Origin: a virus
Taxonomy: Duplodnaviria; Heunggongvirae; Uroviricota; Caudoviricetes
DNA length: 64,000 nucleotides
Virus record (IMG/VR): IMGVR_UViG_2585427773_000003
Strand: one strand, 5' to 3'
In this document: positions 4,625-63,089 of the stretch, piece by piece
Numbering within the stretch: the first letter of the stretch is position 1
How the letters are laid out: every line of letters begins with the position of its first letter
Notes under the pieces: model-generated
Database searches by the model: none
What the model saw: only the letters and a program-made list of their open reading frames with translations
Told to the model about the DNA's origin: nothing
Position numbers and translations under genes: made by a program

Positions 4625-4690
4625 TATTTCCTCCATGAATCGTCAAATCGGGATGGCGGTTTTATATCATAAAACGCCCACACTTGGTAG

Positions 4691-4702
4691 GTAAGTACTT
4701 AC
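4691..4702. promoter_or_regulatory. Palindrome GTAAGTACTTAC (late-region operator family)
   Basis: Perfect 12-bp palindrome 55-66 bp upstream of holin-like start; same family as sites at 23868, 43437, 63069 and others. Confidence 0.5.
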
Positions 4703-5538
4703 ACATGAGCGCCGTAAATTGCCCCAACTTTAGTCCAAGTTGGAGCATTACCAGTAACAGCTTTACCAGCTGCTCCGCCGTTATATTCTGTACCGTTACC
4801 TTGAGTATTACATCTTCCTCCAGCAGCACCGACATTACCACCCGAACCGCCTGTATATGCACTAAGAGACCCCTCACCAACAGATCCTTTACCAGGAGCG
4901 GAAATAGTACCAGCAGTTGCACCGGAACTCATATGAGAGGAAGACCCACCAGCACCGAATGGGCGACCACCGCCGCCGCCAAATATTAGTTTACCCCTGT
5001 TACCGCCGCCACCGCCGCCGCCACCTCCAGCGATTGCACCATTATTCGTAATACGCAAGCGTGTACCGATGCCATTATTAATTGCGTTACCACCAGCAGC
5101 ACCGGCAGCGTTACTACCACCATTGCCACCGCGTCCATAGACAGTCACACCTGCGTTGATTACAAGGCTGATATAAGAGTTGGTAAGTGAACTCGGGAAA
5201 TCTAAACATGGCACGCCGCTACTGGACGACACCAGATCCCCTGTAATGGTAACAACGACTGGCGTCGCCCCCTGGGATTTTAAATAGTTGATCAGTGTGT
5301 CTTTGTTGTAGTTATGATTCGCACCGATGCTGTACTGAATTTCCTTAGAACGACCTGCTAACTGAGACATATTCCCAGCAGCAGACAATTGCACCGCCGT
5401 TCGAGCTGCACTCATCCATCTCTGGCCTGTCACACTGACAGCCGAAGACCCAATCCAACCGGGAACACCGACAATTGGCACATCTAATCTCCTTTTTGAT
5501 GTGAATATCCTGAATTGGTGAGGGGGGCCCCTCACCAT
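4699..5538 (-). CDS. Glycine-rich tail-fiber-associated protein (possible receptor-binding tip/adhesin)
   Basis: Immediately follows tail fiber gene with RBS aaggtga; poly-Gly tracts (GGGGGGGGGN) and G/S/N/T-rich composition. Confidence 0.4.
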   Translation of the reverse strand: MVRGPPHQFRIFTSKRRLDVPIVGVPGWIGSSAVSVTGQRWMSAARTAVQLSAAGNMSQLAGRSKEIQYSIGANHNYNKDTLINYLKSQGATPVVVTITGDLVSSSSGVPCLDFPSSLTNSYISLVINAGVTVYGRGGNGGSNAAGAAGGNAINNGIGTRLRITNNGAIAGGGGGGGGGNRGKLIFGGGGGRPFGAGGSSSHMSSGATAGTISAPGKGSVGEGSLSAYTGGSGGNVGAAGGRCNTQGNGTEYNGGAAGKAVTGNAPTWTKVGAIYGAHV

Positions 5539-10401: not shown

Positions 10402-10494
10402 GTTGAATATGCTCCTTGATTTAGCGGGTTATCCTTGCCCGCCATTAAGTAAATACTTACCTATTTTTACCGATATAAAATTTTTTTTCCACCA

Positions 10495-17309: not shown

Positions 17310-17391
17310 TGTTTCATCCTTGAAATAAGTAGGCGCTAACATCCTGTCAGCGCCACAATGATAGTAAATTAGTACTTACTTATCCAGATAC

Positions 17392-23818: not shown

Positions 23819-23867
23819 TGATGGAAAACTCCTTTTTCCGTTAATTCTACGCATTCATTGCGCTAAT

Positions 23868-23883
23868 AGTAAGTATATACTTA
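23868..23883. promoter_or_regulatory. Perfect 16-bp palindrome GTAAGTATATACTTAC
   Basis: 50-65 bp upstream of major tail gene start; member of recurring late-region palindrome family. Confidence 0.5.
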
Positions 23884-23892
23884 CCAATTGAG

Positions 23893-27440: not shown

Positions 27441-27445
27441 AACAT

Positions 27446-27461
27446 AGATAATTACTTATCT
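27446..27461. promoter_or_regulatory. Palindrome AGATAAttacTTATCT
   Basis: Perfect 6-bp arms, between capsid stop and terminator. Confidence 0.4.
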
Positions 27462-27471
27462 ACCACACTGA

Positions 27472-29284: not shown

Positions 29285-30859
29285 TCACTCGTTCTCTTGA
29301 GTAGATGAGTCCCCATTCCCTCGGGGTTGATCTTGCCCGCTTTCTTGGGCCGTACCACGATCATAAGTAAGTACTGACTTATTTTCAAGGGTATTTAGAT
29401 CATTTTTTGGAGGAAAATTCAAGAGATCTTTATCAAATTCCTTTTTCATCGCCTCAGTAATGTTCGGGAAAATCTTCTCAATAAGCATTTCCATCTGGTG
29501 ACGACGTACAGAGTCCGGTGCCTGAAGTAATGACAGTTTCTCGGCAACAGAAAATTCATCAGTAAGGCCACGAATATCGAAACTTTCTGGATACGCAATT
29601 AAAGAGTGGTCTTCGTCCAGATCTGCCCCCATCCATTTCGCAACCAGTAGCATGATTTGGCGTTCAGCCCTTTCCAGACGCTCTGCTTTTGTGACAAGCA
29701 AGCTATTTACACGCTGGAAGTCATACATTTTTGCGGCACCAGATGAATTATCGATTCCCTGTGCGTTGTCCTGCTTCGTTCGCTCACCAGCTACACCAAC
29801 TGAATGGTAGATTTCGTTAATCACCGTCTTAATCGTAGTGATGATCATCTGAGCTTGTTTCGGGTCTGGTGACAGATAAAACGGCTGGTTTCCACCTTCA
29901 GAATCGTAGGTGAAGACTCGCTTTGTGCCCATTTCAAGCACTTTAGTGTGGTTTTCATCACCAGGTAAAAGCGACTGTACCGGTATAGCCAACTGGCTAA
30001 ATGTCTGATCCTGAATAATGGCATCAAGGTTTGACAGATAGTTTGCAACCGCACGATCAAGATAAGCGATATCATCGATCAACGATGGGCTGAAATACGG
30101 TGATTCACTTTCTCCAATACAATCAACAGGAAACACAGGAACTACGCCGAGATTATGCTCACCGCTATCCTCTAAAATAACTTTTGCCTGACGGCGACCT
30201 GCTCCACCAGCGCCCTTCTTCACTTCCTCACGGAACAGATACCACTCGTTTTGTGTCCACAGACGATAACGTTGGTATTCCTGACCTGTAGAAGTAAAAG
30301 GATCTGCGTCATCACGAGCGACTTCCACAATTAACGCCCACAACATATTCCCGTCGTCGTCCCATGCCACATCCAACATTTGCTGAGGTGAAATCCAGTA
30401 GGCGTAGGCGCGAGCATCTTTCTTTTTCTCGTCAGCTACTGACTCAACATCACCACTCATCGTGCTATCGACAACAACCCATATGCGACCGTAAATAGAC
30501 GACTGCAAATCAATAGCGGCCATAAATGAGTCAATAGAGGCATTCTGGCGAGTCGCACGTTTCCAGAAATTGCGGATCTGCTCTGGTGCCTCTTCGATAT
30601 TTCTATGAATGTCTTCTTTAAAGAGATATTTGTTGATGAGGTTTACCACCTCACGAGTGTGGTTGAAGCGATAAGCACGTTCAACTCGCTCCTTAAACTC
30701 CTGATCTCCCTCTTTAAAGTAACGAAAGATATTGTCTGTAAACCAACCACGCCCGCCAGCGTAAGTGCTGGCGAGGAAGTCCCAATGTTCTTTTTTCTTT
30801 TCGTATTCCGGGTGGCGTCGCGCCACCAGATCCTTAATTTGTTTGTCGTTCAATTCCAT
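29285..30859 (-). CDS. Portal protein
   Basis: 524 aa, position after terminase large subunit. Confidence 0.7.
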   Translation of the reverse strand: MELNDKQIKDLVARRHPEYEKKKEHWDFLASTYAGGRGWFTDNIFRYFKEGDQEFKERVERAYRFNHTREVVNLINKYLFKEDIHRNIEEAPEQIRNFWKRATRQNASIDSFMAAIDLQSSIYGRIWVVVDSTMSGDVESVADEKKKDARAYAYWISPQQMLDVAWDDDGNMLWALIVEVARDDADPFTSTGQEYQRYRLWTQNEWYLFREEVKKGAGGAGRRQAKVILEDSGEHNLGVVPVFPVDCIGESESPYFSPSLIDDIAYLDRAVANYLSNLDAIIQDQTFSQLAIPVQSLLPGDENHTKVLEMGTKRVFTYDSEGGNQPFYLSPDPKQAQMIITTIKTVINEIYHSVGVAGERTKQDNAQGIDNSSGAAKMYDFQRVNSLLVTKAERLERAERQIMLLVAKWMGADLDEDHSLIAYPESFDIRGLTDEFSVAEKLSLLQAPDSVRRHQMEMLIEKIFPNITEAMKKEFDKDLLNFPPKNDLNTLENKSVLTYDRGTAQESGQDQPRGNGDSSTQENE

Positions 30860-30870
30860 TTGAATAACCT

Positions 30871-30889
30871 TAGATAACTACTTACCTAT
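30871..30889. promoter_or_regulatory. GATAACTACTTACCTATC motif (late-region family)
   Basis: Between terL stop and portal start; shares TTACCTATC arm with sites at 55888 and 63069. Confidence 0.4.
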
Positions 30890-55845: not shown

Positions 55846-55905
55846 GTGTTTTCTCTTATCGTTTAGTTATTACATTCTTACACAAATTAAGTAAGTATTT
55901 ACCTA

Positions 55906-57591
55906 TCATTTAACGCGTTTGAAAACGTATACGCTGACTGTGATCCCTGTGTCTTCAAACTCGTTGGTAAACGACTTCCCTCTGGCATAAACGTAATTAT
56001 CCATCGTCATCCAGTCCAGTATTGGCGCAGTGCCCGGCAATACTGCTACAAGACGCCCGCCGACTTTCAGATGCCCCAGCGCAGCCAGCGTGTGCTCTCT
56101 ATGACGACCAAGCGAGTACGGCGGGTTCATAACGATTTTGTCGAACTGATAACCTGCGTTGTCCTCAGACCACTTTATGAAGTCGCAGCAAATCGTGTTC
56201 GTATACCCTTTTCCACGCAGGATATCAGCGAAGAGAGGTGCGATTTCTATGCAGGTAACATCTTCCAGATCGGCGTTAATATAGGCCAGAAGATCCCCAC
56301 GTCCGGCTTGAGGCTCCAGCAGCTTCTCACCAGGCTTCAATTCAGTGGCTCTGGCAACGTACTCAGCAATCAAGCGTGGGGTAGGGTAGAACTGGTGTGA
56401 TTTTGTATCCGGTATTAAACCGGTAGCCACAATCGTATTTAGCGTATGGCCGATGTCATACGGGAACTGCCAGTGCTTTTTCTCCTGCACGCCGCCAATG
56501 AAGCTCAGTGTGCGCTCAAGCTCTTCCACCTGCGACTTCTGGAGAGCTGAATCAGAGAAGTACCATACGCCTTTGTCTTTGCTCAATCGCCCGTCACGAA
56601 GCGCAGTGCGAACCGGCACGGAGATCGTCTTCTGGATTAACCCGAACTGCTTTGGTGCCCGTGTTTTTGGCGCAGTTCGGCATGGCGCGGGGATTGCAGC
56701 AGGCATACTGTAAGCCAGCACCTCATTCAACTTCCAGGCCACGTCAGGATGTATTTCAAAGTGAACGTTGCCGTTCTTGAACATCTTCACGCGCATCAGA
56801 TTTCCATCGACGTTCATCCAGTCACCGGTCTGGCAGTCGTTTGCTCGATACGCAGCTGATAGCACCTCAGCAGTGCGGTTGATGGTAATAAATTCTTTGT
56901 GCGCGAAGAAATGAAGCAAGACACGCAGATCGTCGATGTAGTCCTCTTTGCGATAGTTCACGCTAACGCTGTCCCGCCAGAAATCAGAAATGCAGTCAGC
57001 GATTATCAGACGCTCGCTGAAACCGTTTGTCTTATTTGTCTTGTGCGCAGGACTCAGCGCCTTAAACAAGCCATACACGCGCTCAGAGAGATATTTGTGC
57101 CTGTCATTCAGCAAATTAAGCATCGTGGGTATGACCGTTTCTGCTTTGAACTCCGGTACACCAACGAACTCTTTAACCTTCATCTGGTAGCCGGTTCTGT
57201 CAGTTTTGATGACTTCCTGTTTGCCCTCTATAAACTGCTCGCGCCACTCATCTCGACGGGAAGCTGGCATGATCAGCAAAACGTTAGTCATGTCCGTGAC
57301 CTTACTCCAGTACTCGGCCCAAATATTCTGTTTCACCCATTCCAGATCGACTTTATCCAACCAACCTCGATTTAAACGCGAGCGATCTTCATCTGGTCGA
57401 TGGTTTAGTCTCAGCAGGCGATTAATCATGTTGTGGCGTTCGTCGCCATAAACGAAGTCGTGTACCTGATACATGAAGGCGATCTCTTTCTCGCACTCGG
57501 CCACAATTTCGTGGATGACGTTCATTTCCTGCCGATAGTCGATAGCAGTGTTTGAGTTGGCATCGTCGATGATGGAAAGGGCTGTATTCAT
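55906..57591 (-). CDS. DNA N6-adenine methyltransferase with large N-terminal domain
   Basis: FYPTP, EPQAGRGDL (AdoMet-binding-like) and NPPY motifs in C-terminal third. Confidence 0.7.
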   Translation of the reverse strand: MNTALSIIDDANSNTAIDYRQEMNVIHEIVAECEKEIAFMYQVHDFVYGDERHNMINRLLRLNHRPDEDRSRLNRGWLDKVDLEWVKQNIWAEYWSKVTDMTNVLLIMPASRRDEWREQFIEGKQEVIKTDRTGYQMKVKEFVGVPEFKAETVIPTMLNLLNDRHKYLSERVYGLFKALSPAHKTNKTNGFSERLIIADCISDFWRDSVSVNYRKEDYIDDLRVLLHFFAHKEFITINRTAEVLSAAYRANDCQTGDWMNVDGNLMRVKMFKNGNVHFEIHPDVAWKLNEVLAYSMPAAIPAPCRTAPKTRAPKQFGLIQKTISVPVRTALRDGRLSKDKGVWYFSDSALQKSQVEELERTLSFIGGVQEKKHWQFPYDIGHTLNTIVATGLIPDTKSHQFYPTPRLIAEYVARATELKPGEKLLEPQAGRGDLLAYINADLEDVTCIEIAPLFADILRGKGYTNTICCDFIKWSEDNAGYQFDKIVMNPPYSLGRHREHTLAALGHLKVGGRLVAVLPGTAPILDWMTMDNYVYARGKSFTNEFEDTGITVSVYVFKRVK

Positions 57592-60727: not shown

Positions 60728-60875
60728 GTGGACTCCATCCAGTGTCAGAAAGAGTTGCGGCTGGCGATTGCCAGCCGCCTTTCTCGTTCCATCCTGGAAC
60801 TGTGTCTTACCGACACATTGTCATCCTGACGCCGATAAGATACATGATTTAAAATGATAGGTAAACACTTACTTA

Positions 60876-61469
60876 CTATTTGTTATAAACAAAACCAATA
60901 TCTTTCTTGTGAGGCATATCTGCTGCTGAAAAAGCTGCGATCTTCGCGAGTCGATCACATATTTCATTTTCACGATGCCCGGCGTGACCTTTAACCCACT
61001 TCCAGCGAACATTATGTCGACTTGCGGCCTCATCCAGACGCTTCCACAGATCAACATTCTTTACCGGTTTTTTGTCAGAAGTCATCCATCCATTGCGTTT
61101 CCACCATTTCATCCACTGTGTCATGCCGTTTTTCAGATACTGGCTATCAGAGTGCAAAATAACGTTGCATGGATATTTCAAACGCTCCAGCCCGATAAGT
61201 GCCCCCATCATCTCCATGCGGTTATTGGTGGTGCTATGAAAACCATCTGAGAACTCGCGTTCCTCACCACGATACTGGAGAACGATACCGTAACCGCCCG
61301 GGCCACCCGGATTTTTAAGGCAAGAGCCATCACTAAAGATTTTCACGGTTTTGAGCTGGGGATTGAACTCTACGACAGGCGTTGTGGGATTGGTGCGGGG
61401 AGAATTTTTGTTTTTGTCTTTTTTGCGAGTTTTTGCTTGCGATCGGGCTGGTGTCTTCGTCGTCATATA
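60876..61469 (-). CDS. rnhA: Ribonuclease HI with basic N-terminal extension
   Basis: DGSC, NNRME, DSQY, KGHAGH.EN..CD motifs with catalytic D/E/D/H/D in place. Confidence 0.8.
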
Positions 61470-61559
61470 AACTCCTGAATCAAGCGCCGCGCCGATTTTT
61501 CCTCGCGCGTGCGCACACGCGTGCGTGTTAATAATTATTAAAATAAACAAATTACTTCC

Positions 61560-62047
61560 CAGAACAGGTTTTTATAAACCTGAACTGAACGAACGAAGTG
61601 AGTGAAGTTCACCTCGAACGAAGTGAGAGGTTGTCTTTTCAGGTAATACTCTCCCAGGGAGGTGAGTATAAAATTCCTCACCAACCTGGTCGTTTCATAA
61701 CCTGAAAAGCTATGGTCTAAGTCTACTGCCAGCTTAGACTTGGGAAGTTATGGATGACAGCACCCCAGAACCGAGATCTTCCCACACTTTATGAAGGGGA
61801 GTACTGGATTCAACCTCTCGAAACACCCCAGACTCGACAATCATAAAGTGACCCTTGTCTCTGCTCACTTTGGTTCCCCCTTCCCCGACACCTATACGGC
61901 ACCGGTTCTACGCTGGTAGTGAGCTTTTTTAAACCTGACGCCAGTGACGCTTACCCCCACCCATCAGGTCGAGCCTCCAGTCTACGACTGGAAACTATCA
62001 GATCTTAGCACTTACAATTCACTTTATGAATAGTTTGTACTTATCTA
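61560..62047. other. Structured non-coding region (candidate ncRNA or origin)
   Basis: About 490 bp without plausible ORF; multiple hairpins (caggttt..aaacctg, ggtgag..ctcacc, tctaag..cttaga) and direct repeat cgaacgaagtgag x2. Confidence 0.4.
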
Positions 62048-62278
62048 TCATTGTGATTGATTATTTTCTCGACCATGTAGTTGAACATTCAAGGCAAACA
62101 CCTCATTGATCAACTCACCTAAAAGCTGTTCAACAAGTTCGCGATGCTCGCCAAGATGTAAGCACTTAATTGCCCACTCGTACAAGTTGAAAGCCTGCTC
62201 ACGATCTTTCATCATTTCACGAGCCTGGGCCAGAAAATCGCTCTCTACGAGCGCAACGACATTAGTCGGGTATGACAT
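62048..62278 (-). CDS. Hypothetical small protein
   Basis: ORF starting MSYPTNVVAL. Confidence 0.4.
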   Translation of the reverse strand: MSYPTNVVALVESDFLAQAREMMKDREQAFNLYEWAIKCLHLGEHRELVEQLLGELINEVFALNVQLHGRENNQSQ

Positions 62279-63068: not shown

Positions 63069-63089
63069 GATAGGTAAGTGATTACCTAT
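63069..63089. promoter_or_regulatory. Palindrome GATAGGTAAgtgaTTACCTAT
   Basis: Perfect 8-bp arms 11-31 bp upstream of methyltransferase ATG. Confidence 0.45.

Follow-up and report, generated by a model that had tools for sequence, protein, structure and literature searches.

A conserved structured non-coding RNA gene upstream of the RNase HI gene in SSU5-type phage-plasmids

Between a gene for a 76-aa protein and the RNase HI gene rnhA, SSU5-type phage-plasmids can carry several hundred base pairs in which no protein is encoded. What is this stretch for? The question arises from 64,000 nucleotides of a virus of the Caudoviricetes (IMG/VR record IMGVR_UViG_2585427773_000003; referred to here as the window), a pECOH89-like, SSU5-type phage-plasmid of Escherichia coli. 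An earlier note, made from the letters of the window, had drawn attention to an element-encoded RNase HI downstream of a hairpin-rich non-coding region, and had suggested a primer or regulatory RNA processed by the RNase H in the manner of ColE1, an origin of replication, or an unrecognised non-coding RNA (ncRNA). Which of these is it? And does it need the enzyme encoded beside it? The answer set out below is that the stretch is an independent structured ncRNA gene on the minus strand, about 455 nt and up to about 520 nt long, a conclusion that we hold with high confidence. The whole explanation, in which this separate gene is expressed in the lysogen, its RNA acts in trans with a cognate partner and the RNase HI is an ordinary accessory, is given a probability of roughly 0.55.

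Along the minus strand the gene order is dam, the open reading frame (ORF) of 76 aa, the non-coding stretch, rnhA and an ORF of 164 aa, all on that strand. The segment is ORF-free, as the earlier note had it; its length is 580 bp (61467-62047) and not 490 bp, a figure that came from taking a TTG as the start of rnhA. This TTG (61550), taken from a mechanical ORF list, was rejected in favour of the ATG at 61466, which is preceded by AGGAG (61472-61476) and which, together with a Shine-Dalgarno sequence, is kept in all lineages. The stretch is identical (100%) to that of plasmid pECOH89, and the 1.55 kb around the locus are 98-99% identical to phages CMS-2020a, PhiR41_1 and Cyrano, and 78-82% identical to Salmonella phage SSU5 and Klebsiella phage-plasmids.

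Does the stretch encode a structured RNA? The transcript of the minus strand has a minimum free energy of -211.5 kcal/mol, where dinucleotide shuffles give -167 +/- 6 (z = -7.0; 0/100 as good), which bears out the hairpin richness noticed earlier. The plus strand folds with z = -5.2, the trimmed 455-nt RNA with z = -4.7, and the RNAs of two Klebsiella lineages with -3.8 and -4.4. The known copies are close enough for alignment with MAFFT, and pairs were counted on an RNAalifold fold of 60 distinct sequences, with partners slid by 1-3 columns and 500 shuffles as controls. Across the 136 predicted pairs, 99.3% of cells are paired, against 38-48% in the slid controls; double compensatory changes occur at 8 pairs (81 cells), against 1-3 pairs (1-5 cells); and none of the 500 shuffles matches the observed pairing score. 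Which strand is being selected? The RNAalifold consensus energy is -251 for the RNA strand versus -217 for the reverse complement, one-sided changes yield 829 G-U cells versus 22 A-C cells, and the structure is just 89.4% paired on the opposite strand. G-U pairs are kept and A-C pairs are not, therefore selection is strand-specific and acts on the minus strand. Compensatory and wobble pairs are maintained on this one strand beyond the controls, with 97 of the 136 pairs lacking any variation and thus uninformative either way. Covariation backs the 5' hairpin and helices 1, 2, 8, 13 and 18; the central and 3' helices are invariant, and covariation neither backs nor contradicts them. Two of the checks proposed in the earlier note, an Rfam scan and a covariation analysis, have now been run: the former matched no known ncRNA and the latter found compensatory changes, which agrees with the note's suggestion of an unrecognised structured ncRNA. 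Its short direct repeats are also present (CGAACGAAGTGAG in two copies 25 nt apart, and other short ones); they are two-copy repeats inside RNA helices and therefore not iterons.

Could the region instead hold an unannotated small protein gene? One record annotates a 44-codon ORF inside it (61734-61868, minus strand; CYRAN_81 of phage Cyrano, 'hypothetical protein'), and RNA-seq reads have been counted over it. Its frame is shifted in L035 and in the Klebsiella L059 group, and in L069-L071 and L073 it is cut short by premature stops. Indels of one or two nt occur throughout the region, and the ORF starts with GTG, with no upstream ribosome-binding site seen by eye in the window sequence. Variable sites fall on the three codon phases as 34/31/32 (p = 0.93), that is, without periodicity, while those of rnhA show a strong third-position bias (38/24/134; p = 1e-24). 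Neither an ORF conserved across lineages nor a third-position bias is found, and the earlier note's own counter-suggestion of a coding stretch with codon periodicity falls away. A protein gene is hardly credible here, and the 44-aa ORF is a spurious one within the RNA. The sequence is nonetheless more constrained than the genes on either side. Nucleotide diversity per 50 nt is 0.006-0.10 within 61551-61950 versus 0.12-0.21 in flanking coding sequence (59 related sequences), 2-20 times lower, and the RNA is 86-95% identical between elements whose RNase H proteins share just 76-84%. Variable columns make up 23% of the RNA, 85% of the third-codon positions of rnhA and about 20% of its first and second positions.

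How is the gene built? The core RNA, termed here type 1, covers about 456 nt (61540-61995, minus strand), as supported by folding, pair counts, diversity and RNA-seq, and its predicted start is an invariant G at 61995. Just upstream lies a conserved sigma-70 promoter (62002-62030, minus strand) with a -35 box TTCATA (62030-62025), a 17-nt spacer and an extended -10 element TGcTAAGAT (62010-62002). Among 28 diverse sequences the TT of the -35 box and the T, A, A and T of the -10 box are invariant and the spacer varies freely. A consensus promoter scan did not flag this site, which agrees at 8 of 12 positions with a threshold of 9, and the call rests on the conservation pattern and on RNA-seq for this reason. 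The RNA opens with a stem-loop, GUUUCCAGUC GUA GACUGGAGGC (61973-61995), that has a nucleotide diversity of 0.48 and is folded by every lineage, each with its own stem (CCAGUC/GACUGG, CCGGA/UCCGG, GGCAGA/UCUGCC, UUUCGA/UCGAAA); a hairpin rebuilt in this way is typical of a protective 5' end. Further along are a purine tract, GGGGAAGGGGGAACC (61872-61886), (near-)invariant in the 60 sequences and predicted to be mostly unpaired in a multiloop, and two invariant blocks: UGGGAAGAUCUCGGUUCUGGGGUGCUGUCAUCCAUAACUUCCCA (61741-61784), with a mean per-column diversity of 0.002, and CCUCUCACUUCGUUCGAGGUGAACUUCACUCACUUCGUUCGU (61589-61630), with 0.008, which contains both CUCACUUCGUUCG repeats and the hairpin between them. 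These values come from the 60 distinct sequences, drawn from elements of E. coli, Salmonella, Klebsiella, Enterobacter, Cronobacter, Kluyvera and Raoultella.

Where does the RNA end? A first candidate 3' end lies at about 61540, after a terminator-like element (61540-61587, minus strand) composed of a hairpin (61560-61587), an invariant GGGAAGUAA and a U-rich tract (61540-61551); the hairpin has a variable loop and a compensatory stem, with pair 432:441 changed from UA to GC in 9 sequences. Nearer to rnhA comes a GC-rich hairpin (61478-61527, minus strand), also terminator-like or else an attenuator, in which a CG/CA tract (61504-61527) pairs with a partner at 61484-61499 and is followed by UUGAUU, just upstream of the ribosome-binding site of rnhA. 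It folds in the three rnhA-containing lineages tested (E. coli, Cronobacter and Klebsiella) with differing stem sequences, and variants lacking rnhA keep most of it. If transcription ended at this hairpin the RNA would be about 518 nt long. A Z-DNA reading of the alternating CG/CA tract was dropped, the tract being one arm of the hairpin.

Is the RNA made in the cell? Published RNA-seq of an E. coli LF82 lysogen gives CYRAN_81 117 normalised counts, the upstream ORF CYRAN_80 9.5 and the RNase H gene 8.4 (Table 1 and S1 Table of PMC9928086). In five conditions the log2 of fragments per kilobase per million (FPKM) is 6.8-10.35 for CYRAN_81 versus 2.6-5.8 for its neighbours, with a peak 6 h inside macrophages after a rise of about 11-fold (PMC9928086). 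The region is thus transcribed 12-40 times above both neighbours in these data (PMC9928086), and its profile parallels that of the putative repressor CYRAN_45. Since the counts so far exceed those of the neighbours, the lysogen makes a discrete transcript that does not reach rnhA at a comparable level. The conserved hexamers and the RNA-seq together point to a promoter of the RNA's own and to a discrete transcript with predicted ends.

What, then, is the part of the RNase HI? The product of rnhA (60876-61466, minus strand; 196 aa) has matches in Pfam, PDB and PHROG. Residues 40-178 match the Pfam family RNase_H (PF00075) at 1e-44, and residues 38-180 align with E. coli RNase HI chains of the 1rnh/2rn2 family at E of about 1e-62. 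The catalytic motifs FSDGS, NNRME, HSDSQ, GHAGH and ICD are all found, covering the DEDD residues of bacterial RNases HI (D10, E48, D70 and D134 in E. coli numbering) and H124, and the enzyme looks catalytically active, as the earlier note had proposed. Residues 1-37 form the basic N-terminal extension that it had put at about 35 aa, and PHROG 531, a phage RNase H family, spans residues 1-190 with the extension included. Compared with E. coli RnhA, residues 38-180 correspond to residues 2-143 of the solved enzyme with all catalytic residues in place; the element's enzyme differs in its 37-aa basic extension, in being borne on a phage-plasmid and in being often lost. Its expected job would be the removal of RNA primers.

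It is this frequent loss that separates the RNA from the enzyme. Type 1 RNA is found in 687 PLSDB plasmids from E. coli, Klebsiella, Salmonella, Enterobacter, Citrobacter and Cronobacter, and in 232 of 5,426 complete E. coli genomes (about 4%); full-length rnhA of the window's type is in at most 618 PLSDB plasmids. In a blastn search of 72,556 plasmids the RNA matched in SSU5-like elements only. The RNA is still 89-95% identical at loci from which rnhA is missing, or where it is cut short or has given way to unrelated cargo, often on the opposite strand. It stands without an intact rnhA at about 8 of 75 IMG/VR loci and about 12 of 51 gut-metagenome loci, and also in Kluyvera (L086), Enterobacter hormaechei (L236) and several Enterobacter and Citrobacter plasmids. 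In the E. hormaechei plasmid betT cargo takes the place of rnhA and the RNA is intact to its 3' end, homology ending after a GAGG-A(n)-TCG junction downstream of the GC-rich tract. There are at least two junction types, therefore rnhA was lost repeatedly. From these comparisons the RNA does not appear to depend on the element's rnhA, and the neighbouring RNase HI is an ordinary, dispensable accessory of the element's replication machinery.

The ground just downstream of the RNA is a cargo hotspot (about 61467-61500 in the window, with equivalents in L086, L199, L201, L216, L236 and L084). Several variants lacking rnhA show the junction CCCATCGTAATGTCTTCAATGTGCCAA(A/G)AGC after GAGG-A(n)-TCG and then diverge into betT, antimicrobial-resistance cargo, two opposite-strand ORFs and others; in Klebsiella variants the insertion falls after about codon 8 of rnhA instead. 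A contig of Buttiauxella gaviniae (L084:4830-5163) has just the 3' 335 nt of the RNA (95.8% identical) and the GC-rich tract, promoterless and fused in frame to the end of a metallophosphoesterase gene with host-like genes after it, and looks like a recombination remnant. Might the stretch then act as DNA, as a recombination anchor at the hotspot or a cluster of protein sites whose hairpins are incidental? The exchange of rnhA for other cargo, the junction shared by several variants (CCCATCGTAATGTCTTCAATGTGCC) and the joint marked by the RNA's 3' fragment in Buttiauxella would suit such an element. It would not account for selection that tolerates G-U and not A-C, for the compensatory changes, or for a promoter with a discrete transcript, and the 164-aa ORF on the hotspot's other flank has no comparable conservation. 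We regard a DNA-level element as very improbable.

If the RNA is kept whatever follows it, could it nevertheless be a leader for the genes downstream? In this alternative the promoter would fire constitutively, lysogen transcripts would end at the two hairpins, and a lytic factor, possibly a palindrome-binding protein, would let RNA polymerase into rnhA and beyond, the RNA being both platform and by-product. Much of the layout would suit a cis-acting leader or attenuator: the RNA lies immediately upstream of rnhA in the same orientation (as does an unrelated second RNA type, described below), two terminator-like elements stand between them, abundance drops 12-40-fold before rnhA in the lysogen, a palindromic site adjoins the promoter, and SSU5 has an antirepressor-family gene about 1 kb beyond rnhA in the same direction of transcription. 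That placement echoes the arrangement in P1 and N15, and the P4 PLE leader and the lambda pR' '6S' RNA are precedents for leaders of this kind. A leader, however, does not require 450 nt of near-invariant sequence; the RNA remains intact before unrelated opposite-strand cargo (L086, L297, L298) and ahead of antimicrobial-resistance or betT cargo, and a promoterless 3' fragment persists in Buttiauxella. A leader is therefore thought unlikely, though less so than the other alternatives.

The earlier note had raised another link to rnhA, a ColE1-like primer processed by the RNase H. As a primer or R-loop origin (ColE1-like or T4 ori-like), the transcript would hybridise near the AT-rich 61528-61551, be cut by RNase H and prime the leading strand of the lytic or the plasmid replicon. 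The length, strong folding and constitutive promoter do resemble those of ColE1 RNA II, which is about 550 nt long; the RNA strand is rich in G and has G-runs that never vary (GGGUGGGGG and GGGGAAGGGGG), and an AT-rich variable spacer follows it. The locus lies inside the replication-gene cluster beside RNase HI, an RNase H gene follows both RNA types, and the host RNase HI could supply the processing. What speaks against it? No homology to RNA II or RNA I was seen with Rfam (isolated region, E <= 10) or in the plasmid blastn, and no conserved antisense promoter like that of RNA I was found, the sole promoter-like site on the plus strand (61989-62018) lying at or upstream of the RNA start and pointing away. 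Terminator-like hairpins separate the RNA from the supposed transition point. The RNA is expressed in lysogens that replicate by a RepB-family initiator (plasmid coordinates 101-1315) about 16 kb away on the circular map, and loss of the element's rnhA, with the RNA retained, has happened repeatedly. In one Klebsiella lineage (pCAV1099) the RNase H lacks D10 and D70, relatives in the Morganellaceae and Pectobacterium with the same dam, exonuclease and ORF76-like genes do without the RNA, and a self-templated primer needs no frozen unpaired positions. The note's other proposal, an origin at the locus, fares no better, with a RepB-type replicon elsewhere and a cumulative GC skew that shows no inflection here. 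A primer processed by RNase H is improbable, and the RNA would not be expected to serve as one cut by the adjacent enzyme. The element's replication proteins are its own (DnaE, helicase, primase, ligase, and 5'-3' and 3'-5' exonucleases) and the RepB-family initiator; its replicons are typed as IncFIB or rep_cluster.

A different line of evidence comes from relatives with another RNA at the same place. Thirty Klebsiella plasmids (pCAV1099-111 and IR12073_1 types) carry a sequence-unrelated structured RNA, type 2, of about 480 nt (L293:3226-3760 and L294:3226-3775; also in L295-L299), between an ORF76 homologue and an RNase H gene. The order is dam, the ORF76 homologue (51% identical), a gap of 570-650 nt, RNase H (37-52% identical) and TerB. 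The layout recurs: a related palindrome (TAAGTAAnnATTTACTTA) precedes the RNA, followed by a -35/-10 pair and a covarying 5' hairpin. Type 2 folds with z = -5.2 in sense and -3.4 in antisense, and 15 of its 152 pairs show compensatory changes in 7 sequences; it has no Rfam match and also persists where rnhA is replaced. At the level of sequence, homology between the types was rejected, the local alignment score being equal to the shuffle mean. Type 2 may be a very diverged homologue or else an analogue; in both cases the conserved thing is the slot and not the RNase H. The RNase H of the pCAV1099 lineage (L293:3796-4359) has N for the catalytic D10 and D70 and no GHAGH, is 74.5% identical to the intact L294 enzyme, and may be a catalytically dead hybrid-binding protein.

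How far does the family reach? An nhmmer profile of type 1 found nothing in Moellerella, Providencia or Pectobacterium elements or in the type-2 Klebsiella loci, and scans anchored on RNase H in IMG/VR, anchored on ORF76, or made with exact motifs across genome, viral and metagenome collections returned no relatives below 86% identity. At this locus the more remote SSU5-like elements, from Moellerella, Providencia and Pectobacterium, have neither the RNA nor rnhA and other cargo instead; the dam, exonuclease and ORF76-like genes are shared (the comparison did not extend to the wider replication set). These elements do have a non-coding block of about 320-330 nt (L239:3893-4211, L240:4414-4703, L241:3892-4211), 74% identical between Moellerella/Providencia and Pectobacterium, with unalignable flanks and AT-rich sequence after it. 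The block was rejected as an analogue of the RNA, being unstructured (z of about 0). The RNase H loci of unrelated phages (L075-L082) show no upstream gap and no such RNA.

What would a free-standing RNA do? The sigma-70 promoter beside the palindrome starts it at about 61995, the predicted first nucleotide. The RNA, a 5' stem-loop followed by a multi-domain fold with covarying outer helices and central and 3' parts near-invariant across Enterobacteriaceae, ends or is trimmed ahead of rnhA and accumulates in the lysogen with both neighbours at background. The proposal is that it would act in trans in the plasmid (lysogenic) state and immediately after entry. Action in trans is suggested because the promoter is constitutive, which would give expression in the lysogen and right on entry, the types are sharply discontinuous, the RNA is retained whatever lies downstream, and P1, P4 and N15 offer precedents. 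The RNA would bind a cognate partner, a protein of the element or the host or another nucleic acid, as a regulator or a specificity determinant. This reading is adopted because unpaired positions are frozen (66% invariant) and an unrelated type-2 RNA with the same layout occupies the slot. A trans-acting regulator or partner binder is put forward tentatively, as something short of an even chance. Somewhat more speculative is the idea that the RNA founds a class of its own, large structured ncRNAs peculiar to SSU5-like phage-plasmids, with at least two unrelated types in one slot. Each would determine the lysogenic state in a type-specific way, in immunity, exclusion or incompatibility for instance, or would be the RNA component of a ribonucleoprotein (RNP) with a conserved partner. 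If each were a type-specific determinant, freezing within types and discontinuity between them would follow.

Several points weigh against a trans-acting gene with a partner. No partner or target was found: blastn-short of the 64-kb window and the other 47 kb of a near-identical plasmid gave no complementarity above chance, a co-varying protein not having been sought. The RNA heads rnhA and the downstream genes co-directionally in most elements, which also fits a cis leader, and an RNase H gene directly follows each of two different large RNAs, which may still mean a functional link to the metabolism of RNA-DNA hybrids. The RNA-seq counts cover the annotated 135-nt ORF; both 3' ends are predictions, and in a Klebsiella lineage the U-tract is missing after the first hairpin, which is not a canonical terminator everywhere. 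The proportion of never-varying columns is about 80% for paired positions and 66% for unpaired ones, and the central fold is largely a matter of thermodynamics alone. Frequent recombination at the adjacent cargo hotspot could also add to the low diversity of the RNA.

The control region may say more about when the RNA is made. A 20-bp palindromic, operator-like site, ATAGATAAGTACAAACTATT (62029-62048), lies across the stop codon of the 76-aa ORF and directly beside the -35 box, with its centre at about -43.5 from the predicted RNA start; its position is kept in all lineages and its TAAGTA is invariant. A second copy, ATAGGTAAACACTTACTTACTAT (60857-60879), overlaps the stop codon of rnhA, so that the two bracket the RNA-rnhA unit. 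The family has a consensus of about ATAGGTAAGTACTTACCTAT, and its 12-nt core occurs 9 times in the window versus 0.22 expected. Members lie at 4687-4706, 10445-10464, 17361-17383, 23866-23888, 27444-27463, 29363-29382, 30870-30889, 55887-55906, 60857-60879, 62029-62048 and 63070-63089, mostly in intergenic positions just upstream of genes, both early and late. Dispersed repressor sites are known from the 'stoperators' of mycobacteriophage L5 and the many C1 operators of P1. As there, a short conserved site recurs in many short intergenic regions of early and late genes; unlike there, the site is palindromic and the adjoining RNA promoter is active in the lysogen. The family is probably the operator of a global regulator. 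Whether binding near -43.5 would activate or repress is speculation, both being possible. A related palindrome also stands before rnhA of an unrelated phage (L066, about 2812-2830).

Is the RNA new? No family of Rfam 15, C4 antisense RNA, 6S, CsrB, tmRNA, RNase P, group I/II introns, GOLLD, ROOL and HEARO included, matched in a scan of 6 kb (E <= 1) or of the isolated region (E <= 10), the best score, 21.5 bits versus a 56-bit threshold, being a chance match of a hepatitis C virus (HCV) stem-loop model to the GC hairpin. ARAGORN found no tRNA or tmRNA in the region, RefSeq has no feature annotated under the 232 E. coli copies, and the searchable literature holds no description of this RNA. A CsrB-like sponge was rejected by inspection, as its GGA motifs lack conservation and do not sit in loops. 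Since Rfam, RefSeq and the literature are silent and tested features of every family considered failed, the RNA is rated new at the level of the RNA family; its mechanism may prove a variation on a known theme.

Which themes come closest? Like ColE1/pMB1 RNA II it is a plasmid-borne, constitutive, strongly folded RNA of about 500 nt with G-rich stretches, found in Enterobacteriaceae and adjoining functions of RNA-DNA hybrid metabolism. Unlike RNA II it has no similarity in sequence or in Rfam, no RNA I promoter and terminator-like hairpins downstream; its element has a RepB-type initiator and its own replisome, it persists without the element's RNase H, and its sequence is far more frozen than in the ColE1 family. 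The c4 RNA of P1 and P7, CI of P4 and CA of N15 are RNA-based immunity or anti-immunity systems of phage-plasmids and satellites, processed to 70-90 nt, that pair with repeats in their own leaders. They share with the RNA described here a phage-plasmid setting, a constitutive lysogen promoter heading an operon with silent downstream genes, and distinct types in relatives. The differences are that the Rfam C4 family is unmatched, that the present RNA is 5-6 times larger, and that a search for pairing with its own or downstream leader repeats gave no match above chance, short or structured kissing contacts being such as would escape it. The lambda pR' '6S' leader (194 nt, not known for strong constraint on sequence or structure) is likewise a discrete, constitutive, terminated lysogen transcript upstream of silent lytic genes; the RNA here is kept even with the downstream genes swapped. 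Finally, GOLLD, ROOL, HEARO and OLE are large structured ncRNAs of unknown or RNP function, often phage-carried and known mainly from outside the Enterobacteriaceae. The resemblance lies in a length of several hundred nt, a multi-domain structure backed by covariation, an association with mobile elements and the lack of coding capacity; the present RNA differs in having no Rfam match and in being confined to SSU5-like phage-plasmids of Enterobacteriaceae.

Some observations concern the surroundings of the locus. PADLOC defence models were run on the RNase H, on the 76-aa ORF, on three ORFs downstream (164, 62 and 141 aa) and on the two L086 cargo ORFs; none matched, and a defence-system reading was rejected on these grounds. 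Two small hairpins with CAGGAUG loops (60786-60831, minus strand) lie in the 5' untranslated region of the 164-aa ORF; they have a weak CsrB-like Rfam match (16.8 bits) and may be CsrA-binding sites. Outside the window, CYRAN_43 of phage Cyrano (OV696614.1, 40268-40822), by the integrase and repressor genes, is the top-expressed feature of the element in LF82 at 723 times background, and might be another unannotated RNA or a locus of toxin-antitoxin type. The near-identical plasmid pECOH89 bears ISEcp1-blaCTX-M-15 (NC_023916.1, 3703-6096), also beyond the window, which makes phage-plasmids with this RNA carriers of resistance that matters in the clinic.

What does such an RNA mean for these elements? 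Clinical Enterobacteriaceae commonly harbour SSU5-like phage-plasmids, some of them with resistance genes, blaCTX-M-15 among these, and hundreds of Klebsiella plasmids have the RNA. An RNA more conserved than the proteins around it, and expressed in the lysogen, has stood unannotated in all those records. To our knowledge, few large structured ncRNAs occur in Enterobacteriaceae, and every new class to date has led to unexpected biochemistry. The unrelated second RNA in the same slot amounts to a natural swap experiment. Should the RNA prove to control lysogeny, copy number, exclusion or host physiology, it would be a point at which the stability of these elements and their spread could be influenced.

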